NCBI GenBank assembly: GCA_036172245.1
Contig: JAYWIR010000030.1
Location: 1,240,001 to 1,304,000, forward strand
Origin: Raillietiella orientalis
Lineage: Eukaryota
Direction: 5' to 3'
Length of the DNA stretch: 64,000 bases
The notes under the pieces: generated by a model
The model's input: only the letters and a program-made list of their open reading frames with translations
Databases searched by the model: none
Told to the model about the DNA's origin: nothing
Position numbers and translations under genes: made by a program
In this document: positions 23,606-50,830 of the stretch, in pieces
Layout of the letters: each line of letters opens with the position of its first letter
Numbering within the stretch: the first letter of the stretch is position 1

Positions 23606-23756
23606 GCCGCTTTGGAGGACGAGTGGCTGTGGTCACCGCGTGTGGTGAGGAGCGTCGCGGGTTCGAATCCTCACGTGAAGGGTCGGCACCGAGAAGGGGT
23701 TTCAAGTTCCACCCGCAAGATGGCGCTGGTTGACCCATTCGGGTGCGGTGCACTGG
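23606..23756 (+). repeat. tRNA-like (Pol III A/B box) terminal segment of repeat X, locus A
   Basis: A-box-like GGACGAGTGG and perfect B-box GGTTCGAATCC at 23660-23670. Homologous to 48373-48538 (+) and 44704-44865 (-). No complete cloverleaf. Confidence 0.7.
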
Positions 23757-24655
23757 CTGACACCTGGTCACGCCACAGAGTTTTTTTATAATAAATAAAC
23801 TTACAAGTCTGTAGCAGGACGTTTGATCCTGCCACGTTACTTATAACTACGGGAAGGAACCTGCAGGGATCTGACATGCAGGCCAGTGGGGTTCGCCTCG
23901 GCAGCACAGGGGAAGGGGAGACAAACAAAAAGAAAAAAAAATAAAACAAAAAACATACAGTCAAAAAAATGGAGTGGTTCGGGAAGGGATCACTGTGTGC
24001 TGGAAAGCGTCCTTGCATCCTTGTAAGAATGCCGGCAAGTTCCTGTTTTATGGCTCCTAGATGGGGCCATCTTGACTCTGCCCTCATAAAGAGGACAGCC
24101 AAATAGATGGCGTCCCTGTCGTTCTGGCCTCTTCTGGAGTTGCTCCATGCAGCGACGGTCCCGCCATGTAGGCAGCAAAGTGCTGCTAGGGATGCCACCT
24201 GCCGTCGTGAGGGGATTGCTCAGGAAGAGACACTTCGAAACATCTCTGGCATTGCCGCCTGGGGTTCCAAGGGTCGCAGCAAAGCGTTCTCAAAGGAGAT
24301 GAAGGGCAACGCAGTCCACCGCCCCTGCACCCCGTGTTCAGTGTTGCCGGCGGACATTGCACGGGAAACCCAAGTGCAGCAGCATCAATGCCGACTCCTG
24401 CCACTTTAAGGGGTGGGCGAGGGTGGTTCATGAGAACCGAAGGCCATTGCAGATTTTCTTCCGGAATACGCAGTAGCACGCCCCAGAGCAAAAGTCCACG
24501 AGGTCAACCAATCATGGTCACAGCGTCGTTGAGCTAACTCGTCGTCCATTCGCCCAGTTCTTTCCTCCATCCGGAGGTTTCCATAGCAATCTCCTCCCAT
24601 CTAGCCCTAAGGCTGCTGCCCATGTGTTGCCCAAGGGAGGGCAGCGCGGCAGCGA
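23757..24655 (-). mobile_element. Tx1-like family Y, 5'-truncated copy A (ORF2 C-terminus plus 3' UTR)
   Basis: Closely colinear with 48539-49470. Contains the ORF2 C-terminal region, a T-rich 3' UTR and a structured terminus. Confidence 0.8.
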
Positions 24656-25320
24656 GAAATCGCGCGTCCCCTTGACCGGCCTGGATCGGAAATTGACCCT
24701 CTAGGATCTTTCCAGGTCTTAATCAAGGAGCCACTCGGTAACCGTGGGGGTTACCCCTCTGGTTGTGAGAATGGAGCCGCCATCCATAGCGTGCCATAGG
24801 GCTGGTTGATATTCCCTTCGGTAGGTCGCCTCACCAGTGTCAGGAGTGCACTGCTCCCTTCGGGGAGTGCCTTTCAGAGAAATCAGGAAGCGTCCCTTAG
24901 GGGTTCCCATCAGAGGAGGAAACCAAAGAGCGATTCCCTCGGTAGAAGAAACAATGGAGCAGCCTCCACGGACCGGGAGGTCTCTCTGGAGAGAATAAGG
25001 AAGAGATTCCCTTCAGGGTTCCCCTACCAGGCGAAAGAGGAACAGACTCTTTCCTCCGGAGCCTTCCTGGATTCATAGGGTGGTCCCTTCAGGGTTACCC
25101 CGCCGTAATTCTGAAATTAAACACCCTATGCGGACAGTGCCGAAAGAGCTCCGGGAGTTCCCCCCTAAGGAGGCGAACGGTTCTTCAGCACTTGGCGAAC
25201 TTACAAAGAAAAAAAGAAGAAAGAATGAAAAAAAAAATTCTCCCCAAGAAAGAAAAAAAAAATCTGAAAGAAAAACAGAAAAAGCAGAGAAGAACCCAAA
25301 GGATTCCCATAATCCCAGCC
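24656..25320 (-). repeat. Repeat X structured block (probable long 3' UTR of a second Tx1-like family), locus A
   Basis: Homologous to 32700-33545, 44150-44717 (inverted) and 50191-50830. Contains the motif aggaggcgaacggttcttcagcac at 25168-25191. Confidence 0.8.
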
Positions 25321-25329
25321 AGCCAATAG

Positions 25330-26800
25330 AATGATGATCTCCCTGCGAGGTCGCTCCTAACCTTTAAAAAAAAGAAAAATGGCTGATCGGCAGCCCTGTC
25401 GTTCGGCACAAGGTTCCGCGGGGGCAGCTTCATCACCTCTTTGTATCTTTGCTTATCCTTCTGCATCGGCTTTTCGATCTTCATCTCCCTTGCAGTCAGC
25501 TGGAGCATTGAGCCCCGTCGAAGAGTAAAGGCACATCCTCTCTGCTCCCTCCCTCGCAAGGTACCGTCGGAGGCACATATTTCAAAGAAAGACACGTTCC
25601 ATAATAGGGCTCATTTGCATGACGTCATGCATGACATTAATTTCGGAGCCGCAAACGTCGACATTGCCCTTCTCCCTGCTCGTTGTGGTGAAGGTGAAGC
25701 TGGGACCTGTTTCCAGGTGCCAGGAAAAGTAGACTCCACTTTTGAGGCGCGAGGTGCTGGAATGACGGAAAAGATCCTGGAGAACTGCATCCCTGCCTTG
25801 AATGGACCTCGATGTGTAGAGAAAGAGTGCGTCTCGAGCGTCAGCCAGAGACTGCAACGAGGAACCGCTGTTTGCCTCGCAACCCTTCTCGAGACGGACT
25901 TTCCCAGCATCGGATTGCGCCGTCTCTAAAGGCCATCTGGAGTGCACCGCACATCTGAAAGATACGAGCCTTTGGTTCGTAACTCCGGTTCCTAGGAAGA
26001 AGAGTCTGAAGAGCTAGTCGAGCTCCCTACCATAGTGCTTTGTACCAGTGATACTCCGGTCCATGACCTCCGGAGGCACTTTGATTGAATATGCAAACCA
26101 TTTCAGAATTCCAAACTTCCGAGATGGGATCGAATTGGACTCTGGAGTCATCTGTGGGCGAGGAGTCGGCCAGCGTGCGGCAGATGAAATGAGATGGTTC
26201 TTCCTCTCAGCATGCAGATTTCCGAAGAAGGTCGTGGGCGTAAATTCAGAGATGGAAGTTCAGGATGCCTGATGAAACGAGACTTCATCGCTCGCATTCG
26301 GGAGGAAAGAAGCTGACAGAAGTCGCAGTGGTGCCTTGCGAAACAGCGCCGTTCACTCTGAGGCTGCCTGCCGAAGTCATTATGGATCCAGATATTTTCC
26401 TCCTTACTGATGGTCGCGGAGCTGATTTCCACAGCTGCCCGCGGATGCCCCAGGCGCTTGATAAGGAAGGGGAAGACGGAAGTCGCGCTTTCCTGACACG
26501 CCACCACTAGAAGAATCCAATAAGGAAATAGGAAAAATTCATCTCTTCCCTTCTGGATCAGAGATCTCCTTAAGGCGTGGTGACTCTGAGGGACAAAAGC
26601 TGGAGATGCCCAGAGTCCGCATCGGGTCTGAAGTGCTCCCCTGAACTTTTGAAAACAAGAAGCATAGAGACATCCCGGTATCACAGAGACAAATGAATTT
26701 GCATCAATCTCGGCAGTTTCGGGATAGATGCTGTGAACTGTACCACGCGAGAGTGGCTTAGGGTATCGGAAAAGTCCTCCCATCCAGCGCGCCGGTGCTG
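25330..26800 (-). mobile_element. Decayed Tx1-like ORF2 (APE endonuclease plus linker) upstream of the X block
   Basis: 'IWIHNDF' (GDFN-like) and linker-like 'LFLYTSRSIQGRDAVL..SGVYF'. Frameshifted. Confidence 0.4.
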
Positions 26801-27924
26801 GGCCTCTTAATGTCGAGAAAGTCCCTTGACAAGCAGTCTCTTGACATGCGACAGGTGACAGAATTCTAGGAAAGATGCGTTGGAGATGCTGGATTTGACG
26901 AGTACTGTCAGATAATCTGATGTCTCGAGTGGCTGCTTAGAAGTGCAGTTTGCACTCGGAGCTAAAGAGGCTGGAGTGTCACCAGGGTACACTGGAGATT
27001 TCTTTCCATGGTTTCGGGGATGGTGAGCATGGACGGAGCAGTGATTGGTGAAAAAGAACCGGAGCCTTCAGTGATGCAGTGGAAGAGAAAACATGTTGGA
27101 TTTGGAATGCGCGCAGCGACTCTTTGCCACTTCTGGGAACGTGGAAAAGCGTAGGCTGAGAATCGATTTTTTTTTTGGCGTGATGGAAAGTCCATCTTTA
27201 AAAGTCAAATGTTTCTTCTAGAATCTTTTGCTGTCACCTCTTGTAGAGATTCCTCACCGCTGCTGTGTTCCGTTCGGTTAAGGTCGTTGCGAGCTTTGTC
27301 GACCACAGAAAGGACCTTAGGAGGCAGACGCTGCCGTGGCGAAGAGGAATTTCATTTTGTAAAGGGGAGAGGGAAGCATGTGACTGGATGGTACCCCGAA
27401 GGAGTGCTTAGGGAAGTGGCGACCGGGATTGGCAGCCTCGTCCGTTCGGTCGAGTGTGTCAGCAACTTCATTCTCTGCAGTTTCAGTAATTCTTACGCCG
27501 GTTGATTTTGGATGCTGCACCTCCCTTCCCCTCTGGAAAATCTGGTCACACCATCCTACTGATTATCTGCTTTTGTTTGAACTGTGTGAATTCCTTCGAC
27601 TCATACGAGCAATCCTTGCCCAGCATCTCTGTTTCTTCCTCCAATGTTGAATCCTAAAAGGGGAGTTCCCTTTCGACATTCCGTTTCCGGGCTTTGCTTT
27701 CGGCATTTTGGGTTCAATTTCGTTCGGATCAGTTTAGGTTCATTTAGGTGTGATGCAGGTCTAGTTAGGCTAGATGTGGTCAGATAAGGTCTTTTGTTTT
27801 TTAGGAGAGCTCCAGGGTTCAGTTATTCCAGAGTTCAGCAGCATCTGCCACGTGATAGAGACATCTTTCTTTCTCGAATTGGCATCTCTTCCGTGGCGTA
27901 CAGGATGCACGAGGTAGTTGAAAT

Positions 27925-28110
27925 TATCCCCTTCTCCTCCCCCTTCCTTTTCTTCATCCCTTCCTCTTCCTCTCCTTCTTCCTCCCCCTCCTCCTCCTCC
28001 CATCTTCTTTCTTCCTCTTTTCTTCCTCCTGTTCCCTTCCTCCTTTCTTCTTACTCCTCCTTACGCCTCCCTTCCTCCTCCTTTTCTTCCCTTCCTTTTC
28101 CTCCTCAACA
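27925..28110. repeat. C/T low-complexity tract
   Basis: Almost pure pyrimidine (cct/ctt)n-like run. Confidence 0.9.
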
Positions 28111-28499
28111 GGGAAGTTTGCATCGAATTTTTGAGGAGAAATACCTCAGCAATGAGAGCAGGGGGAAAATTCTGTAGCCTCCGGAACATTCCCCAAAGCG
28201 TCTCCTTCCTCGCGCAAAGTCCTCCCCTTCCCACACGCTCCTTCGTCGAAGGTTCAGGGAGAGAGGGGGAGAAAAGCGGGAAAAATCCAGCAAGGGAGGG
28301 GAAGCGGGAGGAATGTCCTGTTCACCCCACGCGAAATTTCCTGTCTCGCGCACTTTCACTCGCATCGCAGCTTCTTCCGCTCCTTCCGAGATTCTCCCCT
28401 CAGCTGAGGAGAACGGCTGTCGAGTGCCTCGCGGACCGATTCGGGAAGACCGGCGCGAGCGAAAGTCACTCCGCAGGGGGAATGGGGGAGGGGAGGAGT

Positions 28500-29780
28500 T
28501 GAGGCTGCGCATGTAGGGAAGGCGTAACGGGGATGGAGAGAGACTCATCTGCCGTTGAGGCAGCACCGACCTCGTTCACCCCTGGGCGACCTCGGGGGAC
28601 GCCCGAACCTCGTAGGGATCAGGAGACAAAAACACAAGAAAAAAGAGTAAGAAGAAGGAAGGAAAGAAAGGAGAGGGGAACACTTTCTCCCCCCTCTCCC
28701 TTTTCCACCCCAACTTCGAAACGGTGGCCTCCAGATGAGGGTCGGGAAAGCAGGGACGGCAAGGGAGACGGTTGCAGAGCCACGTCCCTTGCTCATGACC
28801 ACGGAGGCTTGCTTCGGTGGCGGGCGCACTGGTGCTCCGGGACCGGGGAGAGCAAGCTCTTTCCTTCTTTCCCCCTTTTTTTTGAGCGTCCCAAGGAAGT
28901 TCGTTCTGGAAGGAGGAGTAGCCTGCTGCCCGGGAGCGGAAGGGATCAGTGCTTTTCCTTCTCCGCGCCTCCGAGACCTTCGACAGGGCAATCCCAGCCG
29001 GTGGCTCTCGAAGCACGGATGCTCCCCAAGAGCGCTGTCCCCCCTCCTTCGAAGCCGCGCGGGCTGACCGTGGGTGCGCTCTGCCGTTCCGCCTGCTAGT
29101 AGGGTCGTCCCTTGGGACGTCCCTCCGTAGTCACCCGATTAGCTCTGGAGTCGCTCCAGGAGACGAGGGAAATCTGGGAGAGCAATCTCGCCCCCAGGGA
29201 AAGGAAGGGGTGGGTTGCACGTCTGCTTGCGCCCCAAACAAGGAAGCGTCGGAGGCGTTGGAGCGCTCCACGAGGGCGTGCAAAGGGAAGGCGAGAGAGC
29301 CGCCTTTTCACCCACGCTGGCAGAGGACGGACAGTCCCTTCCGGTCAGCGGGCCTCCAGAGAAGGCCGCGGAGACTCGCTCCGCATCCTTAGCATCCCTC
29401 TTAGCGGATGCGAGTCCTCTTCACCCTTCCTGAGCTCCGACCTTCCGTGGAGACCCTATCGATGCTCCAAAGACAAAGGGAACACGCGATCCATAAAGCT
29501 GTACGGACGCACCGCCCAGCAGCTCCAGCGTGGAGGTGAACCGCCGTGCACAGCAGCTTTCCTCTCGAGCGTCCCCGGCGCGTTGGTGGCGACTGAGAGC
29601 CACTGCGAAGGCGCGAAACGCACCCGCTGGTGAACTCATGGAGATCTCCTCGGCGACAGTCCCCCGGCGACGGTTCCGTGGTTGCCCTGAGGCAATACGA
29701 GGAGACTTCCTTTTTCTCGTGCGACCGGCGTTGGAGCCGCTGGACGAGGGGAGGAAGGTGTCCCTGAACTGAGTCCGGTG
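28500..29780 (+). mobile_element. Decayed L1/Tx1-like ORF1/endonuclease fragment (+ orientation)
   Basis: 'LESLQETR' (lQET), 'GSVGGVGAL' (SGGVaiL) and 'SSDL' (GGDF-like) occur in APE order. Confidence 0.35.
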
Positions 29781-32250: not shown

Positions 32251-32699
32251 CTCGTTAATTTCACCTCTGCGATCGTCTCCAATCGTGGTGGAGAGCCGGC
32301 CAGGTCTTTCTGGACAGAAACCCGATCTTCCTGATCAAGCCGCGTGTTTCTTGATCTCGACTGGTCGAGATGGATCACTTGTCAGCGTCACATAGCAACG
32401 GTATGATCGGATCGTATCCGGCTTGAGGATTTCTCCTGCGTCTCTCGAAACCGACACTGACAGTGGAGAACGGATGACATCCCACATCAAGAGGGCCGCC
32501 GGGAAACACCGGAAGTGGGCGGGCCATACCGGGGACGGGTTCGGAGCTCGTGCGCCGGGACGAAGGGAAAGCAACCCTATTGAGGCTTCATCAGCAGTTC
32601 CCGAAAAGACATGGCAGCAGAGGGAGAGCAGGCGTCTTTCCGCATGGCCTTCAGAGTCCCACGATGTCTCGCCGTAAGACGCAAGGCACAGCACGGTGT

Positions 32700-33545
32700 T
32701 GAGAGAATCGGAAATATTGAAGAGGTAGCCAAGAAATGACATTTCCTTCCCTTTGGGGAAGAAATGAGGAATGTCTCTCCTCCGAGAGATCCCTTTGAAG
32801 AGAATGAAGGAGAGGTTCCCTTCGGAGACAACCAGGCAGAGGTTCCCTTCGGGGTTTCCCGCCAAGTGTAAGAGGAACAGAGACTCCTTTCTCTGGAGCT
32901 CTTCCTGGGTTCAGAGTTATCACCCTAAATTGAAGAGTTACACACACCCTTGGGTGGGTGTAACTTCATAAACAGCCGTACCATTCCATACCCTTCTCCC
33001 CCCCTCCCCAACTTCAGTATAACCTGAGCAAGAATTATAAAACCATAAGAAATTGACTCCACATGAGCCTTTGGAAGTCACAAATGAACACCATAAAGTG
33101 GTAACTTCACAAAAAACACTCCTACCAATATTAAACTTTCTACTCCTAATCCCTCATCCCCCATTCTAACAATCAATCTATCTTCTACAAAATTCATAAC
33201 ACCAATTAAAAACCATAAAGATCTAAAAACCGTATAAATAAATATATAAACCCTAGCTCTAAATCTCTCCCTTTGATACCCTCACCATACAACAATTTAC
33301 ACTATAGGAATCACCCTACCCTCAAAAAATACATAAAATATAAAAAAATCAACTCTCGTAAATCTATAAATCACTAGCACACCTGGACAGTGTTAAAGGG
33401 CTTTGTGAGTCCCCACTAAGGAGGCGAACGGTTCTTCAGCACTTTGCGAGCCCAAAAGAAGAAAATCCAAAAAAAAAAAGAAAAGGAGGAGAAGAGAAAG
33501 GAAGGAGAGAAGCGAAAACAAAAGAACCCAAAAGGATTTCCATCA
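32700..33545 (-). repeat. Repeat X block, locus 2 (interrupted by the NUMT)
   Basis: Conserved motif at 33419-33442, shared boundary agaacccaaaagga.ttccatcat, and ggttcccttcgg hairpins. Confidence 0.75.
32967..33383 (-). pseudogene. ND4: NUMT: mitochondrial NADH dehydrogenase subunit 4 fragment
   Basis: Abrupt AT-rich, strand-skewed island. Under the invertebrate mitochondrial code it reads FYVFFEGSVIPM..WWGYQ..., FVKLPLYGVHLWLPKAHVE, MILAQVMLKLG..GYGM, with TGA at Trp positions. Stops and indels are present. Confidence 0.93.
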
Positions 33546-35450
33546 TTCCCATTTGTATCGGAGGAGATCGTCTGCAAACCGTACAAGATGCGATGGACCT
33601 CATCTACCCTCCCTTGCTCCAGTGCTGCTCTCCCTGAGGGACGCAAGGAACAGCGTAATCCCGACAAGGCGGGAAGTGACTTGCTGCATAGCAGCAAAGA
33701 GGAAAGTATTGGGGGCGTGGACAACTCGGAAAGTGACGGACGACTGCGACCCCGAGTGTCTCACCCCACGGACTTCTACAGGCTGCTGCGGGCGGCAGGA
33801 CAGTTGACTCGGAAGTCAGAGTCCGCTGAGGCTCGTGTGCAACGACTCACCTGTAGAAGCGGCTACCTCTGAGGCGCCGAGCCCACACCCCACCTCCATG
33901 ACAGAGACCCAAGCCATCCTCTTCTTCCTTCCCTTCCTCGTCAGTAGCAGCACAGCCGCCATTATCATTTTTTATCACTCCGTTGCATCATCGATCGCCA
34001 CCAACTCCACCGCCATCATCTTGATGATGGATCGTGGATCTTCAGCCACCCCATCTCAGGAGTGGGCGCTCTACGCGGAAGAGGACGACCAGAGAGGCTT
34101 TGGGGCCGAAACGATCCCTCCCGATTCCCCCACTTCGAACGGGTGGGAAATCCGGCTCTCCTGGACTCCTGGACTTCCACGGGTTCCCCAAAGGGACCGT
34201 TCTGCCGAACAGACCGGGCCTCTGAGGGATATCGGAAGTCGGAACCCGTTTTGGTGGATGCAGCAACACGGAAAGGCCCCTGGATAAAGGCGCCGTTCAC
34301 TTGGAAGGCTTGCGTTCTCTCCCAACAACGAACAACAGTGAGCACCCTCGCTATCGAGATTCTTCCTTGGTCGAATTTGTCAGAGCTGCTCCGGAAGGCT
34401 TCTGCTTCATTCATCTCGAAGAGGAATGAATCCCTGTGCTTCTGCCTTCCTTCAGACCCTTTAATCCTGCTTCTGCCGCTGCAGACGCTTCCTCCCTTCC
34501 TACTCAGCAAAGGAACTCCGCCGCACCATTGCAAGTGTGAAGGAGGAAACCTTTCCTCCTCTCCCACAGAGAGCCACTGCTGTGAAACAGAAAAGAAGTC
34601 TGCCGTCTCGAAGAAATCACTTCGGAGGAAATTTTCCGTCTTTCTCGGGAATTGGAATCTTCGGGATGTGATGGATGTGATTGCTCACGTGATGGATCGC
34701 CGAGGACTCACGGGGAAGATAAATGCTCTATCCTAGATCTTGGAAAAGCCCATGCAGAGGAAACTGGAGCCATTTCCAGATGAAGAATGAAGATGCAGAT
34801 GCAGGGGTGCACGTTCAGGTGTATTCGGTGGCAGCACGAAGATGAATGATTCCCAGCTCTCCTTCCGCGTCTCAGAGACCTCAGCGAGGAGACCTCATCA
34901 TGAGGGATCATCCCCTATGGAGTCTAACTGTTACCCAGAGATCAGAGGGGATGAATTTCCTGGAAGTGCGTGCTGAGGAGGAGTTTTCATTCCAGTTTTC
35001 TTTGCCATTTTCCTCCGAAACATGGAGACTTTCCGAGTAGGAGGGAGCAAGAAGTGCACCCTCGATTTTCCGGAATCGCCAGGTACACCACTGGCCGAGA
35101 TCAGCTGAAGGATCCTGAAAGCGGGAACCCAATCTGTTGGCCAAGGTGGAGTTTACGAAACGTTGCGAGCAGGAGTTATCTGAAGCCCTCAGCTTCCCAC
35201 GCGTCAGGAATGAATCCGCGCATGCGCGCACGTGTTTGCAGAAGCACACGAGTGCGCACGCGCCTCCGTGCTCGTGAGAGTTCCAGCTGTGGAAGGACCG
35301 CGATCGCAGACCCACCTTGGCAGCTTTGCAGGCTTGCCAAACTGACATGAAATATCCGGTCATCTGCGGGAAGTCATCCATTGGGAAGTCAGCCGTGATC
35401 TGAGAAAAGGTTTCCATCAGAGGTTTCCCCACGCTCTTACACAGTCTTCA
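33546..35450 (-). mobile_element. Decayed Tx1-like ORF2 (endonuclease, linker, RT up to FADD) joined to the X block
   Basis: 'GRSRIKG..DSFLF' linker, 'KSRSPGEPD' (KSPGPDG-like), 'VRGVRHSG' (GVRQG-like) and 'RFADDLL' at ~33562-33582. Confidence 0.65.
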
Positions 35451-38416: not shown

Positions 38417-40070
38417 TTATCACCCAGTCATGCTGAGTTGTTTACTACAAGAACATACATATGTAGATAAACATACATGTGTGGGGCCATCGGCCCCACA
38501 TTATCCGAAAATGCTGGGAACCTGCCGAGTAACCGGCACGCAGGCCGGCGAGGTTCGCCTCGGCAGCGGAGGGGAAGGGGGCAAACAAAAAGAAAAATAA
38601 AACAAAAAAATATATGCAAAAAATTGGAAGGGTTAGGGAAAGGATCATTGGGAGCTGGAGGGCGTCCTCTGCATCCTTTCCAGGATGCCGGCAAGTTCAT
38701 CCGAGTGTGTTCCAGGTGGGACCATCTTGCTACCGTCCTCATGAAGCGCAGGGCGCAGCAGATGGCGCCGTCCTCCTCTCGCGCCCTAGCTCCAGGCCGC
38801 CACGATCCTGCGTAGGCAGCAACAAAGAGCTGATAGGGATGCGGCAGGAGAAAGGATATGGCGCACGAAGAGGCGCTTCATCACATCCCTGGGATTGTCC
38901 GTCGATGCACCAAGGCCCGTTGCGTAACGCAACCACTGGGACCGGAGGGCAACACAGTCTACAAGCAGGTGAGGGAGCTGGGATTCCCGTTCACGGCTCA
39001 GGCAACAGTTGGGGCCCACAGCCCCCCAGGATCCAGTGGGATCAGCGGGCGTTGCACGGGAGACTCCAGTGCAACATCAGAGGTGCCGACTCTTGCCACT
39101 TCAGGGGGAGGACCCGGTTGTTCTTCAGCGCTGGGGACCTCTCGAGGTCTTCCTGTAGCAGCTCACCCCAGCGCATTAATCCCTTCGGTGGGACGCTTGA
39201 GCTCACAGCGTTCGTGAGCTGGCCTGTGGTTTCCTCGTCTTCTGACTGATTTCGCAACTGGCCTCCCATTCGTCCAGCTGGTTACTGCCCAGGTGCTCCC
39301 AGAGGGAAGGCAGTGCCACGGCTAGGGAGGTTCTTTGAGCCCACGCACACGTGGTGGGCTGCACAATGACGTCCTGTAGCGAGCCGTTGCTGTAGAAGGA
39401 GTGAAGTAGTCGCTGTCGCATCTCCGTGCTCGATTCGTTGTTCTTGACCCATGTGAGAACAGCTTACTGCAGCCAGGCACTACCATTCGCAGGCCGGCAG
39501 AAGATCCAGTTGTTGGTTCCGGTCAGTTTGACCACTCGCCGGAGCTCCAGTCAGCAGCTGGACACGTTACGTCTACGCCGCCACGCCAGGAACGAAGACA
39601 GTCCCGCGTAGCCAGTAGCTGGCTTGACCAGGAATTGTGCAAGCTCCACCAGTTGGTTTTCCACATCCTCGCCACTAGGGCAGGCGTCCTCTACTGAAGG
39701 CTCCAGAGTTAAGAGGCCGAGACCTCCGTCGCGACGAGGAGCGCACAAGTCCTTCAGGCGAACTCGGGACTCCTTGCGCCCCACCGAGAGATTCTGAGGA
39801 GGTCCGCCGTCCGCCTTTTGATGCTACTCTGTGGGAGGCCAATAAAGAGCAGAGAATGAAAAAAGGGGATCACAAACATGTTCCACACCGCGGCCCGTTC
39901 CTGCAAAAGAAACTTACCATCTTGGAACGGGGTGATAGCCGACTCTGCTTTCTGGAGGCAGCTGGACCACGCCTCCTCAGGAGAATAGTCCCCCAATGGT
40001 ACACCGAGGTACTTAAAGTACCGAACCGTGGAGATCCACAATAGGATCAAGTCCAGTTTCCCTGCCCTCG
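38417..40070 (-). mobile_element. Tx1-like family Y, divergent 5'-truncated copy B
   Basis: 'RYFKYLGVPLG', 'ERAAVWNMFV', 'LCAPRRDGGLGL', CCHC-like 'CCLSRERESQLPHLLVDC', and a 3' UTR homologous to copies A and C. Confidence 0.85.
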
Positions 40071-40199: not shown

Positions 40200-42900
40200 A
40201 ATCAGCTCAGACACCTGGTTTACGGAGGTTACCCTGGTTTACCTGGTCATTCCCAAAGAGTTTGAGGGCAGTGCTGACTGCAGTATCCTCGGTGACATGT
40301 GTCTGAGACTCGCTTCGGTGTTCTGCCACCTGGAGGGCACCGCTTCTGATTTGCTGCGGTGCTTCTATTTGCGCAAGGAGGGTTTACGGCAGACGCCGTG
40401 GTTTCACACCCGGATGCACCGGGGCGTCTATTTCTCTTGCAGGAGTCAATGGAGCCGAAAGGCTCACCGATGCCAATTATTACATTAGGAAAAAAGGGAC
40501 AGCCAGCGAGGCCCATCACGTCCACAAAAGGAAAGAGGGATAAAACAAAACTAGAACAAAAAGAGACAAACTATAACAAACAATAAAAACTAGCAAAAAA
40601 AAAAGATTAGATGGGGGGAAGGGAAGGGATCACATTTCGTGATGAGTGAGGTCTCCTCATCCGTTGAAGGATGAGGCGAACCCTTCCTTCTTCCTTTCCA
40701 GGTAGGGCCACCTCAAAGCTATCCGCAGGAATCGGATGGCGTGCAGGACCCTTCCTCCCCCGTCATTCCGTCTTCTTTCGGCATCGCACTTCGCCGCGGC
40801 GACCTCGCGCAAGCAGCACAGCGCTGCGATTGCGTCTGCGGAAGTCATGGCGTTTCTCACGAAGAGGGGCCTCAAAGAGTCTCTGGGATCGTCCATGGGG
40901 TCAAGAAGGGGCGCAGAGAAACATTTCCACGAGCCCCGGAGGGCGATGCACTGCATCATGAGGGGGGGAGGGGGGAATGTTTCCTCCTCCCCACACCTGG
41001 AACAGTGCCGTGATGCGCTTCCCCTCGTCCAGTGGTGCCGATGCGCATTGCACGGGAGACCCCAGTGCAGTATCAGCAGCGCCGCTTGCTGCCATTTAAG
41101 GGCATCAGCTTCCTGTATATAAACACGGGGGGCACTTCCAACTCTTCGGACTGAATGGAGAAGAGTTCGCCCCAACGTTCCAGTCCTTTGCAGACGGTTC
41201 TTGTTCTTGCCGCGTCAGCCAACCGACACGTAGTCCAGACACCGATTAGCTTCCTGCAGGCTATCTCTCAGGAAACCTCCCATTTCGCCGGTAGGAAGGT
41301 ATTATGTATCTCAATAGCGGAGGACACCGCTGTGGCGAAGGGGGTGGTTGCTGAGTAGGCCAACATAGTCGTCTCACTACCCAACGCCTCAAGTGTTCTT
41401 TCGCTGTTCTTCTGAAACTCTCGGCAGCGGGTAACTTCCGACGAAGCCCGGGTGGGCTGGACCCACGTCCTTACTTTCTCCTACCGCCACGCCGAAGTAT
41501 TTGCAGGGCGGCAGCGGATCCACGTGTTCGCTCTCACCAGAGCAGCGACACACCGGAGAGGGAAGTCGCAAGATGGGAGCCGCCGGTGGTGACACGCAAA
41601 GAGGGTTGCGAGTCCTTCGCCACCGACAGGCAGCTGGGAGAGCAAACCTGAAGGGGCGCACTAATGAGTGGCCCAGTTCTGTGCCACGAAGGCCAGTCTT
41701 CAGAAGTTCAGTTGAACTTACATGAGTTCCAAAGTCAGGAATCCAAGTCCTCCGTCGCGACGAGGAGCGCACAAGTCTTTAATCGGACTCGGGACCTCTC
41801 ATTGCCCCCTCAGCTTTTTAAAGGAGGTCCTTCGTCCCTTTCACCATAACGGGAAAGGCAGGGCAAACAAAAAGCATGGGTGCATGGGCACAAAGGTGTT
41901 CCAAATGACGGCCCGTTCCGGCAACCGGAGGTTGCCTTCTTCGAACGTGCCGAGCGCCGACTCCACCTTCTGGAGGCAACGGGACCACACTTCCGTAGGG
42001 GAAACGTCCCTCAACAGCACGCCGAGGCACTTGAAGTACCGAACCGTGGGGATTCTTAAACGGACCCAGTCCGACTGCCCAGCCCAAGTTGCGCCGACCG
42101 GACACACGCTTGACTTCTCCCTGTTCACCTCCATGCCTGTTCCTCTGCTTAGTATCTCGAAGAATTCCTCGAGTGCGTTTGCCGGGGCAGACATGGGGAG
42201 CAGCAGCAAGAGGTCATCTGCACAGGCCGAACGGCCAGTATACCGGGGCATGAGCTCGGCAAGAAAGCCAGAGTATCCCTGTACTCCCTCAGCACCAACT
42301 CGAAGTAGGGGCTGAAGAGCAAGGGACTCAGGCTGACTCCCTGCCTCATGCCGCGCCGCACAGGAATGCCGCACACGTGCCTGCCGCTGAAAAAAATGTC
42401 ACCGCCACGGAGCGCCAGCTGGAGCGCAGATAGGCCAGGAATACGGTCGGGAATTCCAAGCATTCCAGGAGCTCCAGGAAGAGCTTTTGGTCGACGCAGT
42501 CGAATGCTTTGCGCAGATCAACCGCGATAGCAAGGGCTCCCGATGCATCCATCGACAGAGGGCCTCCTTGTCACTGGGTCTTGAGGAATCGAGGATTTCC
42601 CAGGCCTGCTGTGTCATCCCGTTGTAGCAACGCGAGCCGGCTCCGCTCGAGGAACAGATTGGCTTCCACAGATCTGCCAGGAGGGGAGCTGTGATCGGAA
42701 CAATCTGCTGTATCCGCGCCATGGTGACAGCCTACCATGTATTGGAGTCACGTTCGCGGCGAAGGAAGGTCACCAGCATGGCAGCAACCATCAGCATGGT
42801 GGCCTCATCTGCCAGAAGAAGTTTCCAAAAAGGTCGCCACTGTCCAGAGCCGCCTCTAAAAGGAAAGGAGCATCTTCAACCAAAGACTCCTGTCCTGACC
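40200..42900 (-). mobile_element. Tx1-like LINE copy D with the most complete RT (frameshifted)
   Basis: 'VDLRKAFDCVD', 'RRGMRQGVSLSPLLF', 'ACADDLLL', 'VNREKS', 'YFKCLGV' and zinc-finger-like 'CSRCGEEET...C': L1/Tx1-type ORF2. Confidence 0.9.
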
Positions 42901-43899
42901 CTTCCATCTTTTTTTTTATTTATTTATTGCCCTTCCCTCCTCTCTACTTCTTGGAAGCCTACCGCGTGCCGATGGTTATCCCGAATGAACTTGTTATTTT
43001 TGTCATTTCTCGTTTTTGAGGTTTTTTTCCCCCCTAATTCTTTGTAGTTTGTTTGTTTGTTTTTTCAAAATAAAGGCTCAGGCACAACCGGGTGCGGACC
43101 CTTCAACGTTTGGTAGCGAATTCATGAGCCAGGGATTACTGATGATGAGTTTTGCCGGTCACCTCTAGTCCTTTTCACGCTTGGCCCTCGAGTATTGAAA
43201 ACGTCTTCACGGAAACGAGGACGGCTGGCAACAGCTACAGAGATGTCTTCCAAGTTCGTCTCATCAAAATCTTCAGCATTGCAGAGGATCATCCGAAATC
43301 ATGGCAGCCCTTTGAGAGAAAAGATAGGAAGGATGCATTCCCTAGTGGCTGCCATAATTCTCGAAAATCCTTTGGGTTTCTCTCTCAAGGCCTCTCGTCC
43401 TTACTTGTCGATGGTCGCAATTTCCCTCTTTAATGTTTGTTTCCTTGTCATCTGATAGAGGAGACCGGAAGGCGAAGCCGGAGCGCTAGAGAACGCCCTT
43501 ACTGCTCAAGGTACAGCTCAGTGTCGAGGCTTACATTTCCGAATCCTGTTTACCTGAAATCATCATCAAGTTATCCTTTTCCTCACTCTGGCGCATTGCT
43601 CCAAGCGGTGTACGTTGGAAGTCATTTGCCCATTGGCTAATCTGAGAGCATTTCTTTCGTGCAGTCTCACGATGATGGAAGATAGCCTATTTCCGCCCCT
43701 AAGTCTTTCCCGCTCTTCAAGGCAGCTTTCCACGGTCGATTCCTTAGACACGTCCTCCTCTGAGAATGTTCCTGCAAGAGCATAGCTAGGCAGGCTCTTG
43801 CGGAAGCATTTTCTCTTCTTCCGGTGCCCTGAGATTTTCGCCTGTGGGAGGGCTGCCGGACTGGACCTGCTTCTCGGCAAACGCTAGCTCCCGACGTTC

Positions 43900-44865
43900 T
43901 CTGACCGATGCTCGGAGATCACCTCTACCGATCCGATGTAAGTGATTGCGAATGGCCACCAGCCATGCACGAAGAGGGCTTTTCCCCGTGGTCCATTATC
44001 TTCACACAAAACGGCGATCCCGAAAAACAAAACAGACGTTCGTTTTGTTTTCCTCTGGTTCGTGGGATGTTGAGCTATTGGAATCGACTGATACGGACAG
44101 CCGCAGGAGGACTTCCCGGAGATGGACTGAACTCTTCTTCCAGCAAATCTCCATAACGCGGTTTCTTTTTCTTCCGGGCTTTCTTCTGTTTTTGGTCCAC
44201 CACGTGCTAAAGAACCGTTCATCTCCTCAGGGGGAGGTCACGAAGCTCTTTAACTCTGTCTGCGTCACTCGAGGGTGGGTATGACCCTTCAAATTATGGG
44301 GGATGGCCCCGGAGGGACCATTCTATGAATCCAGGAGGCTCCGTTACTCTTGCGCTTGGTCCGGAAACTCCAAACGAAACCTCTCCCTTATTCTCTCCGG
44401 AAGGACCCCCTAAGGGGAGGGCAGCTCTTCCATTCTTCTCCAAAGGGAACCCGGAAAAGATCCGCACCTCGTTTCCTCTGAAGAGGACCCCGAGGGGAGC
44501 TGTGTGCTTCTGATGCTCTGAAGATACAATCCCTTGAGGAGGGAGCATCAGCCAGCTCCATGGCACGCGATGAAGGGACCACTCCAGTGAGGGGGGACGG
44601 CTCCATTTTCACAACTGGAGGGGTAACTCCTGAGGGAATCGGTGCTCCTGGAAGGAGTACGGAGAGTAGACGTCCAATCCCGGCCAGTCAACGAGGGCTT
44701 CCACCAGTGCCTCACCCAACGCCTACAGGGCAACCAGCGTCATCCTGCGGGAGGAACTGGGAACCCACATCGCATTTGTCTCGGGGCCGATCCTCCTCGT
44801 GAGGGATTCGGACCTGCGATGCTGCCGATTGGTGAAACGGGAGGAGGCCGAAGCCACGCGGGAGC
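43900..44865 (+). mobile_element. Repeat X, uninterrupted (empty-site) copy preceded by a Tx1 pre-RT fragment
   Basis: 'SIIFTQNGDPEKQNRRS' (LI.K.GD...NWRP-like), then a T-rich tract and the motif at 44204-44227 (3 mismatches). The block runs directly through ccagtgcctcaccc (44704-44717) into the reverse complement of the tRNA-like segment (B-box at 44804-44814). Confidence 0.8.
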
Positions 44866-47800
44866 CGGCGCGAGCCTCGGCTTTTCCGGAGACCTCTTTG
44901 AGCCGGCGTTCGCTGGAGCGAGGCAGGCGAGTTGTGATCTTTCGTCGTCGTTGTTGTTGTTTTTTTCCTGCCCTCGTGAGTCTCTCGACCAGTTAGAGCG
45001 TTTGCTCCCTAGGAAGAGTGCTTGATCCCTACAAGTTTATGAGGATGGATTTAGCGGCAACCCATCGACGGTTTCCTTCTACTACTGCCCTTTTTTTTTT
45101 TTTTGCTCGTAAGAATGAGAATGAAAGTTGAAATGGAAGCCTCATGGAGAAGCGTGTTCCGGCGGGGATAGGTGGGAGCATCAAAATGCAACGGGAGGAG
45201 AAGATCAATTCGAGCATTCATTGGCAACGACTTTGGTTCCGACGGAGGCACGAGGATACCCACAGGAACCTGAGAAAAGGGTTCTGGAGAGTATGGGTTT
45301 CCGCATCCTGGGAACATCCTCGGGGGAAGGAGCTCGAGAGTGCGAATCTTGCGATCCGAGGGGGAGGAGGCATCAACGCAGCTCATGAAGCTGCCCCCGG
45401 CTGGGGTGCCCCGGCTAGCGCCCTCCGTTCTCGAAGAATTTAGAATTCCTGGCTCACGTCAGCCGAAAGCTGGGCATCCTGAACGTGGGGCAGGGTGCAG
45501 CAGTGGAGGGAGCGGTTGCCCGGGGGCAGTTCTTGTGGAGCGTCTGCGCACCCGGGCGCAACCGACCAAGTGCGAGACTACCGCGTCGCGCCGTGGAGGA
45601 GACCGACTCTGTGCCACCCGCCCCCACCACCGACCGTCTCTTCCGCTTAGCAGCTTCCGTCGCGCTTCTTTCCAGGATCGATTTCTATCCCAGTATGCAC
45701 AGAACTGTTACTTAGGAGAGGAAGCTATGCGCGGATCTGAACTGCGCGACAAAGACAAGCAAGCATTCATCAGACCGGTTACGTCACGCTTGCGTCTTCG
45801 AAATGCCCATTCGGGACTTCATACAGGGATAATCCGTAGCGTGTGATGACGCTCTTCCCGTCTTCTTGAGGACCTCACTTGCAGTGGACTGGAATCAGGG
45901 AAAAGGAGGCGCAAAGAGGGCACTTGGAGAGTACGCGACAATCCTTGAGGAAGAGCGGATTGAAGAGGAGGAAGAGTTTGAGCGCGGCAGTGATGAGAAG
46001 AACCAAGGTAGACCAGAACTCCATTTACTTAACAGTAATCGAAAAATGTGTCCAAGAATCGCTCGGTATCAAGATGGCGAAGTGCCTGATTCAGTCTAAG
46101 GCAGCGGAAGGAGCCCACACGCTCCCGTAGGAACGTGGCCGCCCCCGGATGCACGTGCGTGCTGAGGGGAGGGGAAGGAATGATCGGCATGGGAAATCAC
46201 GAAGCTGCTGCAAAGCACAACTGCGGAAGCCAACTCAGTAGGCGACAGACGTCAGCGTGGAGATCTGAGCATTAGGTCCACAATGGACAGTTGCACTCCA
46301 GGACTGGCCTCTTGGCTTTGGAGAAGAGCTTTGGACTGAGGGCGAGCTACTACGTTTCCAGGATTCCACTAGCAGGAAAAGGCGACTTTCCTCAAAGATG
46401 CATGTTCAAGTATGAACCCCAGATTAGAAGGGAGACGAAGGAATGTGCAATGGTCTCCTTGCAACTCACCACTGCCTAAGACTAAGCGAATCGACTGTAG
46501 CTAGGATGCCAGATTAGGGATCACAGAAGGGGAACTGTGAAAAGCTACATGGCAGTGCAAATATGGTGGTGTTCTGAGATGTGTTTGTGAATCTCCTCGA
46601 GCCAGCAACTAGAAGAAAACTCTTCGAGTGCATGCAGAGACTGCTTGTGCCTTCGTGAGGCAAAGGGGTCTTCCCGGCGGCCCTATGCCCTGAATAGAAG
46701 GCAGCTGGCTTTCTCTTGGGGTTTCACTCCCACTCCAGCAGCCAGAAGATCTGCAGACGCGCCATCTTTATTTCTGGTCACTGGAAGCGCCACTCTGCTC
46801 CATTCGGATAAATAGGTCACGACTACTGAGATCAGCGACTCCGAGACTAGCCTGCAGAATTCTTTTCTTGGGAACTTTGCTTACTGCCCGAGATCTAAAG
46901 GAAACATCCAGGAGGCAGAGCTGATGCTCGAATCGCACCCCTTTCCCTATCCTGCGATTGCATTGATCTTCGGGAAGCTTCCGTGGCTTTCATCCGAGAG
47001 AATATGGCATGGGTTTATGCATGCGACGATCTGCATGGTCATCTTGCGTGTACGTCGAAGACCCCAATGTAGGCTTGGCGATTCGATCTCACCTCATCAG
47101 ATTTAAAATTCACCGATGGGGATTAAGGATTAATTATAGGAGATTAAGAGATCTTGGAATTCATCCTGGCTACATAAGGAAGTGATCTGGAGAGGTTCAT
47201 TCTGGAAATAGGTTTGGGTTGCTGATTACCTTTCACTCGAAGGCAAGACCGGGGGCGAGAATTGCTCTCCAGAATCCCAATGTCTTGCATTTCTCAACAA
47301 ATTGCTTTAAGACTCCATGCAGGAAGAGACTGGGATGCACGTGGTTTCTCCAGCCTTCTGATGACAAATTCCCATCATCCAGAATTCATCTGGCCCCTCC
47401 AAACTGTTCGGTAAGTTTTCACGTGACCGTGCAGCACTGCATGAGATCGCTTTCAGAGTCCCCGCCACTGCCTCTTTTCACTCTGTGTTCCTTGATTTTC
47501 AATTGTTCCTCCAGAAAGGGATGAACGAGAATGACAGATCCTCATATTCTTTAACCCTGGCTTCTGTGCTAGCAGCCGGAACTTTCTCTCCGACCAAAGA
47601 CAGATTTATGTGTTCACAGATGACTCTGACACGCACTGAATTGAATACGTGTCTATCTTTTTTTTTGTGTGTGTGATCATGCACTTTCGATCTCCATTAC
47701 GATTAGAATCTTCGCTCTAATTAACTTTCTCTGAAACTGCAGCAGTCCCCAAACCCATTAAAACTCCTGCCATTCATTCCGTTCTCTTTTCAGCCACTTC

Positions 47801-48372
47801 AACGTTCTTTATCCTCATCTGCTTTGAAATCTCACTACTCTCCTCGAGCTCAAAGAAAACATAAAAGGTCCCAGAGAACTGAAGAAACAGTCCGCGAAAT
47901 CATCTTATGCAAATTTTTCCGATGAAAAATTCGGAATATTATGGTTGCTGTAACCATCAAAGGAGCCATCAGCCGTGTTTCCCTGGGCCTTCCCATGAAT
48001 GCAGGTCATCATTGCATGTTGCGAGTGGGACAAATTATCCGGGCAAGTTGGCAAACTGCGTTTTTCTCACAGTTTCCTCCTGGCAGCGTGGACGAAAATC
48101 CCAAACCTCGCAGCCAACGGGTACCAAGACGCGATTGGGCTTCCCGTTTCCTCCTGGGGAGGGTGCTTCGGTAAATTATGGACTGCATTCGTTCCCAAAC
48201 TTATTTTGGCTGCTGGAATCTGAACCCGGCGATTCCCTCTCGGATGAGACAGTCCCTTAATCTTAAAAAAAACAAATACCGGAATGGCGAACGCTTCCGT
48301 GCTTTCCCTTGCATCGGAATGATCGGGTCACGCAAACTACAGGAACTCTCTGCTCTTCCCTGAGGATTTGAT

Positions 48373-48538
48373 CGCCCGTGTTGAGCGGCTGCGGTTGGTC
48401 TCCGCGCGTGGCAGCAAGCGTTGCGGGTTCAAATCCCCACGTGAAGGATCGACGCCGGAGAAAATAGGGGTGCGTCGTGGCTTTCCAGTCCATCCCTCAG
48501 GATGACGATGGGTTGGTCCCGTTAGGGTGCAGCACCAG
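48373..48538 (+). repeat. tRNA-like terminal segment of repeat X, locus C
   Basis: B-box GGTTCAAATCC at 48426-48436; aligns with 23606-23756. Confidence 0.7.
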
Positions 48539-50190
48539 TTGACACCCGGTCACCTCAAGGAGTTTATTTATAAAAAATAAACGTCTGTGACAGGACGTTT
48601 GATCCTGCCACGTTGCTTATAACTATGGGAAGGAACCTGCCGGGAACTGTCACGCAGGCCAGCGGGGTTCGCCTAGGCAGCACAGGGAAACGGGAGACAA
48701 ACAACAAGAAAAAAAATAAAACAAAAAACATACAGTCAAAAAAATGGACGGAGTTCGGGAAGGGATCACTGTGTGCTGGAAAGCGTCCTCTGCATCCTTG
48801 TAAGGATGCCGGCTGTTTTATGGTTCCCAGATCTTGACGCTGTTCTCATAAAGAGGACAGCCAAATAGATGGCGTCCCTGTCGTTCTGACCCCCTCTGGC
48901 GTTGCTCCATGCAGCGACGGTCCCGCCGCGTAGGCAGCAAAGTGTTGCTAAGGATGCCTTCTGCCGACGTTAGGGTGCCGCGCAGGAAGAGACACTTCGA
49001 AACGTCTCTGGCATCGCCGCCTGGGGTTCCAAGGGTCGCAGCAAAGCGTTCCCAAGGGGGATGAAGGGCAACGCAGTGCACTAGGAAGTGCGGGAGGGAT
49101 TCCCTCTCCTTGCACCTGGCACAGTTCGGGTCCACCCCTCCCCACCGTGTTCAGTGATGCCGACGGGCGTTGCACGGGAGGCCCAGAGAGTGCAGCAGCA
49201 TGAATGCCGACTCCTGCCACTTTAAGGGGTGGGTGCGGGTGGCTCATGAGAACCGGGGGCCACTGCAGGTCTTCGTCCGGAATACGCAGTAGCACGCCCA
49301 GAGCAAAAGTCCACGAAGTCGACCAATCAGGGTCGCAGCGTCGTTGAGCTGACCCGTCGTCCACCCGCCCAGTCTTTTTCTCCTTCCAAAGATTTCCACA
49401 GCAACCTCCCCCCATCTAACCGTAAGGCTGCTGTCCAAGTGTTTCCTAAGGAAGGGCAGCGCGGCGGCGAGGGAGATTCTGCTTGCCCACGCACTCTTGG
49501 CGGGATATTCCAGGATTTCCCGGAGCGTGCAGTTGTTGCGCGCGTATAGAAAACGTCGCGCCTATTCCGCGCTTGGCTCCTGGATGCCCGTCCACGTGCT
49601 CACGGTTCCCTGCGACCAGGCACTACCGTTCGCGGGGCGGCACGAGATCCACCCGTTTTTCCTGTCCAGAGTGGCCACCTACCCTAGGTGCAGTCCGTTA
49701 TGGATGAGACTGCATGGACGGCGCGCAAGGAAGGACACGAGTCCCACGCTGCCGGTGGACGAGAAGACGTGCAGGTTGGCACCAGGTGGTGCTCCACAAC
49801 GTGCCACGAAAGGCAGTGTTCTAAACTGGGCCTGCAGTGCTTTCTGAAGACGGCTGGACCAGGCTTCTGAGGAGCAGAAGTCCCCCGACAGACCGGTACC
49901 TTAAGCACCGGTCTGTGGGGATCCCCAGGAGAATCCAGTCCGGCCACCCAGACCACACCACACCAACGAGAACCACGGACGACTTCGTCCTGTTCACCAG
50001 CAGGCCCGTCCCTCGTCGGAGCAACTCGAAGAAGCCTTTGAGTGCGCATGCCGGCGTGGACATGGGGAGCAGCAGCAGAAGATCGTCCGCATATGCTGAA
50101 CGGCAGGAGTGCCAGGACACACGCGCAGGTAGGAGTCAAAGTCTCCCTGTAGGCTCTCAGCACCAATTCGAAATAGGTGCTAAAGAGCAG
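48539..50190 (-). mobile_element. Tx1-like family Y, 5'-truncated copy C with a decayed 14-bp TSD
   Basis: 'PLLFSTYFELVL', 'SAYADDLLL' and 'CARCKERESLPHFLVHC'. Flanked by GGGTGCAGCACCAG (48525-48538) and GGGTGCGGCACTGG (50191-50204). Confidence 0.88.
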
Positions 50191-50830
50191 GGGTGCGGCA
50201 CTGGTGGAAGCAGGAAACCGCATGTCCCTGTTGACTGGCCGGGATTGGAAGTTGACCTCTTGGAGTCCCTCCCGGAATCATAGGGTCGGTTCCCTTTAGG
50301 GTTCCCCACCGGTTAAGCAAATGGAGCCGTCCTACCCCACGAAAGGGGGATCCTATATTGCATACCACGGAGCTGATGGATTTGATGACACCTCTCCAGA
50401 GTGTGGAGAAGCGCGCTGCTTCCTTCAGAGAAACTTGGAATCGACCCTTTGAAGTTCTCTTCAGAGGAGAAAACGGAGAAGGGATTCTTTCCAGGTTCCC
50501 TTTGGAGAAGAGTGGAAGAGTCTCCTCCCCCATGGGTTCCTTCCGGGGAGAATAAGGAAGACGTTCCCATCGGAATTCCCCGACCAAGCGCAAGAGGAAC
50601 GGAGAGTTCCTGGATTCATAGGGTGGTTCCTCCTGGATCATCCCCCATAATTTGAAGGGCCATACTCACCCTCGAGTAGAGCGGACAGGGTTAAGGAGCT
50701 TGGTGACCTCCCCCTGAGGAGGCGAACGGTTCTTCAGCACGTGGCTAACCAAAAACAAAAGAAAACTCCAAAAACAAAGCTGGAAGGAAAGCAGCGAAAG
50801 CAGAGAAGAACCCAGAGGGCTTTCCATCAT
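50191..50830 (-). repeat. Repeat X block, locus C
   Basis: Motif at 50717-50740; colinear with the reverse complement of 44150-44717. Confidence 0.82.

Follow-up and report, generated by a model that had tools for sequence, protein, structure and literature searches.

A LINE with a strong insertion preference for one site in a SINE of Raillietiella orientalis

The 64-kb stretch of Raillietiella orientalis DNA that we analysed (the window) holds three copies of a SINE, X, two of them associated with a LINE, Y. The features below are given in window coordinates; TSD denotes target-site duplication.

Locus A, 23604..23757, plus strand: 5′ head of SINE X (tRNA-like, with B box), ending in the target
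Locus A, 23741..23757: target, carrying a 2-nt insertion
Locus A, 23758..24656 (upper limit approximate), minus strand: LINE Y, 5′-truncated, about 0.9 kb, comprising the 3′ UTR and the end of ORF2; antisense to X
Locus A, 24657..25379, plus strand: X body and tail, terminating in the conserved tail and poly(A)
Locus B, 44150..44876, minus strand: empty SINE X, unbroken, without the full tail
Locus B, 44703..44717, minus strand: 15-nt target in one copy, with X continuous across it
Locus C, 48373..48539, plus strand: X 5′ head
Locus C, 48525..48539, plus strand: TSD copy at the 3′ end of Y, identical to the other copy at 12 of 15 positions
Locus C, 48540..50190, minus strand: LINE Y, 5′-truncated, 1,651 bp, antisense to X
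Locus C, 50191..50205, plus strand: TSD copy at the 5′ end of Y
Locus C, 50206..50831, plus strand: X body

As originally predicted, X is continuous at locus B, which ends at 44876, and is split by Y at loci A and C, where X lies in plus orientation with Y antisense to it. The first nick at B would fall between 44703 and 44702. The two inserts have a common 3′ end and different 5′ truncation points, as had been claimed. The insert at C, reported as 1 bp longer, runs from a decayed RT (AYADD motif) to the 3′ UTR and lacks about 240 bp internally relative to other Y copies; its decayed TSD is present but is 15 bp long, not 14 bp with 11 matches. The short target deletion proposed at A stands: X restarts about 9 nt beyond the site, with no clear duplication. 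The 'tRNA-like segment' of the original prediction is a real part of X and can be specified as its 5′ head. Aligning filled with empty loci over their whole length told little about the X head, and local alignments were used. Between A and C, Y is 89% identical, the X head 80% and the X body 77%, confirming the earlier impression by eye that the tRNA-like halves are more diverged than Y. ARAGORN and Rfam returned no matches over the window, and Pfam found no RT in its decayed fragments.

X is a dispersed repeat of 0.76–1.13 kb with a sharp 5′ start and a poly(A) tail; 1,163 candidates were seen at first look. Twenty loci picked by their tails have the tail and the poly(A) in common; at L271 the sequence continues into a Y copy. 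Eighteen tail-picked copies reach the head (760–1,129 nt), and nine of these 18 loci have credible TSDs, two of the nine being duplicates. Many older copies are without the full tail. The head has a clear B box and, in a comparison using 40 of the 62 genomic tRNA matches, scored best against the genome's tRNA-Arg(CCT) (47.5, with tRNA-Asp at 46.5; the best-of-80 score of shuffled sequences reached at most 45 in 200). From its sequence, X appears to be a SINE that ends in poly(A) and whose head weakly resembles a tRNA. The tail-less older copies and an inverted extension in 9 of 102 heads had prompted another reading, a reversed Penelope- or Helitron-like element, which we rejected once poly(A) tails and TSDs were seen. 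The X tail bears no resemblance to the Y 3′ end; Y is therefore probably not the mobiliser of X, and we rejected that candidate.

Y is an APE-type non-LTR retrotransposon of the L1/Tx1 group. It spans about 5.2 kb and has a zinc-knuckle ORF1, an APE endonuclease and an RT, without LTRs, and its copies display 5′ truncation, a fixed 3′ end and TSDs. All copies seen are broken. The CCHC knuckles of ORF1 were read across frames in L121 and L123. Exo_endo_phos matches in Y frames (E values of 2.5e-4 and 4.8e-4) lie under the curated cut-off, as does a zf-RVT match (0.083), and catalytic motifs can be read. The 3′ end is a hairpin and lacks poly(A). Tx1 elements share this combination of an ORF1 with CCHC knuckles, a C-terminal zinc motif and no poly(A). 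A first homologue search returned one protein. The public relative P0001, 65% identical, has RVT_1, and its match to human L1 ORF2 (1e-39) is stronger than that to R2 (7e-17). In a quick RT tree of 55 rows, in which Y is represented by its sisters and which is free of curated Tx1 or mammalian L1 references, the lineage forms a single clade (SH-aLRT 100) whose branch is long (1.36). It sits within a 29-row group (support 86) that contains an alligator protein carrying the name TX1 in its source record and that is separate from plant and fungal groups and from one frog group. Rows named R1 and jockey fall outside a 46-row group containing the lineage. We rejected membership of the R1 clade: the tree is weak alone, the R1 row being a long branch, and PDB matches favour L1. 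Y likely belongs to the Tx1 clade; the earlier label 'Tx1-like' holds for the L1/Tx1 group, with weak support from the RT tree for the Tx1 clade itself.

A 31-nt pattern from the Y 3′ end matched 536 times in the genome and a control pattern not once. We sampled 84 Y 3′ ends by Y sequence alone, without regard to their flanks: 54 lie on the exact X site, 5 at site remnants and 25 elsewhere. The 54 adjoin the X head at the identical base (alignment scores of at least 60; shuffled maximum 38), the opposite of what is expected if Y ends mostly lay beside unrelated sequence. Pooling both samples places 73 of 109 distinct Y loci on site, and 11 of the 13 copies that retain the 5′ terminus adjoin X at the target. 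The target, CACTGGT^GGAAG on the SINE-sense strand, lies about 170 nt into X and about 105 nt past the B box, with Y antisense to it and a duplication of about 15 bp; among old-type X copies whose site is intact, roughly one-third to one-half carry an insert. These figures exceed the threshold for target preference of more than 20% of flanks alike, as given in PMC4494074. Because 25 of the 84 ends lie off site, the specificity is a strong preference and not strict, and with that qualification the original prediction of a site-specific element parasitising X is supported.

On-site duplications measure 7–22 nt at 45 of 59 loci (mode 15); the other 14 have 5′ junctions with 0–6 nt, which may reflect target deletions, decay or misregistration. 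Insert lengths fall into 46 classes across the 59 loci, from 138 to 3,239 nt. Off-site insertions have G at −4 in 33 of 33 cases, random positions from −7 to −12 and a core consensus of GG(T)^RR, with the same stagger of about 15 bp. Thirteen have credible duplications (7–18 nt by script, several perfect at 14–16), and two purines then follow. Three of the 25 off-site ends lie within the X head (L143, L164 and L174).

The varied insert lengths, the greater age of X and the off-site duplications of about 15 bp with a GGT^RR core together indicate independent insertions and no amplified composite. Non-CpG divergence is 17.9% for the X head versus 10.8% for Y, with X greater at 46 of 54 loci, and X and Y distances are uncorrelated (Mantel rho 0.07; 69 of 500 permutations equally high). 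It is very improbable that one ancestral X+Y composite multiplied as a whole, or was propagated through gene conversion, and lost internal pieces later: inserts truncated to 46 different lengths are followed by X restarting at the duplicated target, and Y also occurs off site with duplications of its own. Some observations do speak for such a history. Locus C and L126, 60 kb away, are about 99% identical over a conversion-like tract of about 860 bp that includes about 35 nt of X, while their remaining X is only 72–80% identical, and a few loci are segmental duplicates (L006/L007/L021). We rejected this near-identity as proof of a recent independent insertion; conversion is likelier, since the tract includes X bases. 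Nor is locus B a deletion between TSDs, given how frequent unbroken copies of X are (30 of 30 in one sample and 18 of 18 in another).

Sister families, with ORF2s about 60–70% identical, have other targets. In related LINEs, family Z occupies a single position of the RT motif L-x-K-A-F-D, in antisense orientation and with a 15-bp duplication (16 loci in 14 host clusters); this target is devoid of any Pol III promoter. Z and its sisters nest inside LINE copies, often at contig ends. Family V is inserted in ORF1 of Z at four loci, two of them nearly identical over 8.6 kb. We rejected site specificity for V, as the four may represent one or two events. All 10 lineage endonucleases examined lack about 18 residues in the region of the hairpin with which the endonucleases of other LINEs act on their target DNA. 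Their GDFN-to-IDH spacing is 37–39 aa in 10 of 10, against a median of 59 in 150 public sequences; in L1, D145 to S202 spans 57 residues (PMC1950540). A predicted model of the Z endonuclease aligns with the L1 endonuclease over 211 residues (Z score of 25.0, r.m.s.d. 2.3).

We consider it likely that Y, an APE-type LINE in the L1/Tx1 group, uses target-primed reverse transcription to insert at a single site in X. The junctions fix the 3′ end of Y at ...CACTGGT^GGAAG; they place the second cut about 15 nt off, at the duplication mode, with 5′ ends truncated at many points. The endonuclease would make the first nick and read beyond the core, preferring this site roughly a thousandfold over ordinary GGTRR sites, and the last few RNA nucleotides may pair with the nicked primer and aid the choice. 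With the βB6–βB5 hairpin region lost in the lineage, the read-out would lie elsewhere. The most plausible place would be the loop that follows NxYAP and varies between sisters with different targets, judging from sequence comparison and the one predicted model of the Z enzyme. An abundant, dispersed SINE would provide a harmless landing site, and since insertion parts head from tail, it should inactivate that SINE copy.

Pol III-linked tethering is known from the TRE3 elements of Dictyostelium and from Ty3. Y could likewise be drawn to the RNA polymerase III apparatus at the head of the SINE, where a weakly specific endonuclease would cut the best GGT^RR downstream of the B box; the distance of the site from the B box, the short off-site consensus, the three off-site ends within the X head and the missing hairpin region all fit. 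We nevertheless judge this improbable, because the junction keeps the same base despite head lengths that vary by indels, and sister Z hits a protein-coding motif with an equal 15-bp stagger. An informal look also noticed no tRNA gene beside any of the 84 sampled ends. Tandem insertions (L064/L186, L071 and L019) fit either order of events and stay compatible with tethering; we rejected them as an argument against it.

Somewhat less unlikely is that RNA from on-site donors carries downstream X and anneals to the nicked target, making the preference self-reinforcing and not enzyme-encoded. Such read-through guidance is known for R1 and R2 (PMC2718515 and PMC6530143). At three off-site loci (L086, L144 and L160) the 3′-junction copy reads GGT versus GGG or GGA in the other copy, which would fit a T supplied by the RNA. 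However, RNA pairing cannot supply the purines that follow the nick off site, positions −7 to −12 are random there, and the 13 off-site duplications show no longer X carry-over. No carry-over of X beyond GGT was seen at off-site Y insertions, which leaves long read-through pairing without support.

More speculatively, a radiation of closely related LINEs in this genome may have re-aimed a hairpin-less endonuclease, with Y directed at SINE X, Z in antisense at the catalytic RT motif of sister LINEs and V at ORF1 of Z, and with a young SINE escaping; we hold this as a tentative possibility. In the youngest X subfamily the Y site is changed and unoccupied. Young X has about 9% divergence and the closest unconverted Y pairs are about 9–10% apart; with ages so similar, escape is inseparable from timing, and we rejected it as established. 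If true, the radiation would amount to a food web whose elements target one another and whose prey can escape, in which the RT motif hit by Z is a site that its victims cannot easily mutate, and would offer a natural series for locating the target-setting loop of an APE endonuclease.

Few LINEs are sequence-specific, and those that are mostly target host RNA genes, microsatellites, or DNA or LTR transposons. A SINE target for Y and an RT motif of its own kin for Z widen this list to other non-LTR elements. The literature searched, mostly open-access and with Repbase Reports (a frequent Tx1 record) outside it, yielded no LINE that specifically targets a SINE or an RT gene; Tx1 elements aimed at other transposons are already known (PMC4494074). 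Loop grafts in L1 gave partial target changes only (PMC1950540). The lineage supplies close relatives with different mapped sites and the same 15-bp stagger, making direct swaps possible, and its enzyme is of interest as one without the loop to which probing of the minor groove is attributed. Both points bear on tools for site-specific gene insertion and on how elements limit each other.

Tx1L of Xenopus laevis is, like Y, an APE-type LINE that occupies a fixed position within a different mobile element, Tx1D (PMC4494074 and PMC1950540). Its target is a DNA transposon, whereas that of Y is a SINE with about 30% of Y copies off site, and its endonuclease has the long βB6–βB5 hairpin whose region the Y lineage lacks. 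The crocodilian families Tx1-Mar, Tx1-9_AMi and Tx1-8_Crp share with Y a non-absolute preference, in their case inside Mariner, Harbinger or LTR elements; section 15 of PMC4494074 names no SINE or LINE-RT target for them. Dewa (tRNA-Leu spacer), Keno (U2) and Mutsu (5S) are Tx1-group elements at small-RNA gene repeats, but their targets are host genes or spacers, whereas the Y site falls in sequence specific to the SINE, about 100 nt past its tRNA-like part. R1 of Drosophila resembles Y in its fixed first nick, a second cut about 14 bp away, occasional target deletions and full-length 5′ ends with a few untemplated bases (PMC2718515). It differs in belonging to the R1 clade and targeting 28S rDNA, whereas the Y-lineage RT groups with L1/Tx1-like proteins. 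Zepp of Chlorella, an L1-group LINE that forms nested arrays, parallels Z and its sisters in nesting inside LINE copies, but it inserts into itself, whereas Z inserts in antisense into a number of different sister families, at an RT motif that is conserved.

Self-comparison of the window upheld the three loci originally noticed, at which a SINE (X) is twice filled by a LINE (Y) lying antisense within it and once empty. The features recognised are:

7977-8430 and ~9122-9300: Cys-loop ligand-gated channel exons (PF02932), from the sole host gene recognised in the window
22786-23127 and 33969-34229: two-copy repeat, ~82% identical, close to X copies
23604-25379: locus A, filled X
32747-32957 and 33384-33550: headless X fragment, its halves parted by a ~430-bp AT-rich insert
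38417-40067 and 40490-42560, minus strand: two older Y-like LINE copies, 66-71% identical to Y
44150-44876: locus B, empty X
48373-50831: locus C, filled X

The ion-channel exon at 7977-8430 marks the host as an animal (assembly size 210 Mb). X runs head first on the plus strand at A and C and is uninterrupted across the target site at B. At A, the Y insert is ~0.9 kb and X continues ~9 nt beyond the site. Locus C carries the insert and target-site duplication (TSD) first noted, with corrected dimensions: the insert measures 1651 bp rather than 1652, and the TSD 15 bp (48525-48539 / 50191-50205, 12/15 identical) rather than 14 bp with 11/14. The X parts of A and C are more diverged (head 80%, body 77% identity) than Y (89%), in line with the original judgement by eye of the tRNA-like halves. 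The Y-like copy at 38417-40067 ends at a GGT outside X, and the sequence beyond the tail of the X fragment at 32747-33550 also trails X tails at three other genomic loci (L061, L141 and L178).

Genome-wide, a 31-nt pattern from the Y 3′ end gave 536 matches and its control none. We examined 84 Y ends among 100 matches listed of the 536, leaving out 16 that were partly apparent duplicates. The predicted targeting of one X site was borne out, with 54/84 ends adjoining the X head at the identical base (CACTGGT^GGAAG); 5 more carry the target or X body, and 25 lie elsewhere. With the 30 best DNA hits added and 5 duplicate rows removed, 73/109 Y copies are on-site. Among 17 loci found by the Y 5′ end, 13 keep the terminus, and 11 of these adjoin X; of the other two, one sits after another Y, at a target that had been regenerated, and the second is off-site. 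Tandem Y insertions at TSD-regenerated targets occur at L064/L186, L071 and L019. Two 25-nt junction patterns counted 185 filled junctions against 373 empty sites plus 5′ junctions, and therefore one third to one half of the old-type X copies that retain an intact site contain Y. Extrapolation from the window puts GGTRR at about 1.3 million occurrences per genome, and X sites number an estimated one to a few thousand, for an estimated preference of roughly a thousandfold over the GGTRR background. Insertion of Y into X is real and genome-wide.

X body was in view at 61 of the 73 on-site loci, 59 of which could be anchored. TSDs span 7-22 nt in 45/59 (mode 15, 11 cases) and 0-6 nt in 14/59, and the inserts fall into 46 length classes, extending to the genome the differing 5′ truncations first noticed in the window. 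Across 54 filled loci, non-CpG divergence from consensus is 17.9% for the X head and 10.8% for Y, with the X head more diverged in 46, and the residual distances of X and Y are uncorrelated (rho 0.07; 69/500 permutations as high). Descent from a single ancestral X+Y composite, an alternative set out beforehand, is contradicted by this unequal divergence, the uncorrelated distances and the 46 length classes. On-site copies are independent insertions, with the exception of C and L126 (G000:C30:1349187), filled sites 60 kb apart that are ~99% identical over ~860 bp (window 48505-49370). Because this tract spans the X/Y junction and includes X bases, it likely reflects ectopic gene conversion.

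A genome query built on the empty site turned up 1163 first-look candidates, of which 40 were scored and 30 fetched; all 30 are continuous at the site, in a sample that the query skews to empties. All begin sharply at a common 5′ start, and a B box follows. Compared with 40 of the genome's 62 tRNA hits, the X head is weakly tRNA-like, scoring best at 47.5 with tRNA-Arg(CCT) (shuffled maximum 45 in 200) and with tRNA-Asp a close second. The same conserved 3′ end, with poly(A), is present in all twenty X loci picked by their tails; 18 extend to the head (760-1129 nt), 9 of these with credible TSDs. Since it combines this tail, poly(A), head and TSDs, X is a SINE. The tail of X differs from the end of Y and, judged from sequence, X is therefore probably mobilised by another LINE. 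In 9/102 X heads (for example, L040, L048 and L178), the first ~20-35 nt are repeated in inverted orientation just upstream, forming a terminal hairpin. The tail-picked copies (L272-L290) constitute a young subfamily, ~91% alike, with an altered Y site, poly(A), TSDs and a longer body. All 18 of 18 young copies are empty, and a young-type head was found in 0/77 filled loci; either escape from Y or timing alone may account for this vacancy.

At L121 (~4249-9400), the two halves of X flank a near-full Y copy. Stops or frameshifts interrupt each of its recognisable parts: a zinc-knuckle ORF1, the APE endonuclease, the RT and a zinc motif at the C terminus. The closest public protein, the metagenome record P0001 (65% identity), matches human L1 ORF2 at 1e-39 versus R2 at 7e-17; of the other relatives, none exceeds 38% identity save P0127 (70%), a short fragment. 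In a quick RT tree representing the lineage by five sister frames of this genome, P0001 and one more (two intended rows were dropped for short coverage), the lineage forms a long branch grouped weakly with an alligator protein named TX1. Membership of the Tx1 clade, which the tree backs weakly, is probable.

The Y 5′ query also recovered a sister family, Z, 69-71% identical to Y and 88-98% among its own copies (L211-L229, including L213, L221 and L222). At 16/17 fetched loci the Z 5′ end adjoins, on the antisense strand, the L-x-K-A-F-D motif in the RT of related LINEs; the seventeenth, L219, has the 15-nt motif, lacks the adjoining host sequence and was excluded from the identity count. Identity is 76% among host flanks, which fall into 14 clusters at 90%, as against 94% for Z itself. 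Three full copies (~5.55 kb), with 15-nt TSDs matching at 11, 14 and 12 of 15, occupy three different hosts that are 70% alike. A further family, V, lies in sense within Z ORF1 at one position ~1340-1400 nt into Z (L216, L217, L228 and L214) with TSDs of 10-12 bp; these four loci may represent few events.

All 33 off-site Y ends carry G at −4, mostly as GGT. Automated calling gave 15 off-site TSDs; without L064 (target copy in tandem) and L175 (local repeat), purines occupy both post-junction positions in 13/13 as counted, or in 12 when the register of L161 is shifted by one base. The enzyme therefore contributes no less than GG(T)^RR together with a stagger of ~15 nt; the T at three off-site junctions seems RNA-derived. 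The longer site preference probably reflects read-out by the enzyme, to which tethering and read-through pairing are rival explanations. GDFN and IDH are 37-39 residues apart in 10/10 lineage endonuclease frames, versus a median of 59 across 150 public sequences; the equivalent L1 span, as described in PMC1950540, is 57 residues and includes the betaB6-betaB5 hairpin. The predicted Z enzyme (pLDDT 92) retains the L1 fold (structural-match score Z 25.0, rmsd 2.3, 211 aligned to 1vyb_A), and the model places a single short strand and coil where L1 has the hairpin span. The most variable loop among sister endonucleases follows NxYAP and, by analogy, may equate to betaB4-alphaB2, the predicted read-out loop of R1Bm (PMC1950540).

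Zepp, TRE3 and Ty3 are comparison systems. Tx1 targets described in PMC4494074 include Tx1D, U2, microsatellites, Mariner, Harbinger and LTR elements. Parts of PMC1950540, PMC4640811, PMC6530143, PMC3747384, PMC3706591, PMC8869645 and PMC2718515 were also consulted, and figures and supplements of these papers may name further targets. Searches of the accessible literature listed no LINE specific for a SINE or for an RT gene, in keeping with the original view of the Y/X pairing as one not recognised as described. Y works in like manner to Tx1L and Tx1-Mar; new beside them are the SINE target, a sister aimed at the RT motif of its kin and the shortened endonuclease.

Many nests of Z- and V-type insertions lie near contig ends. 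L225 (G000:C149) and L226 (G000:C81) hold another young sister family, its copies arranged in tandem, head to tail, with a period of ~5.6 kb; its ORF2 retains long open frames. At L198/L230 (G000:C2:3857400), a sister LINE 5′ end directly follows the X tail in sense, possibly marking a second site in X.
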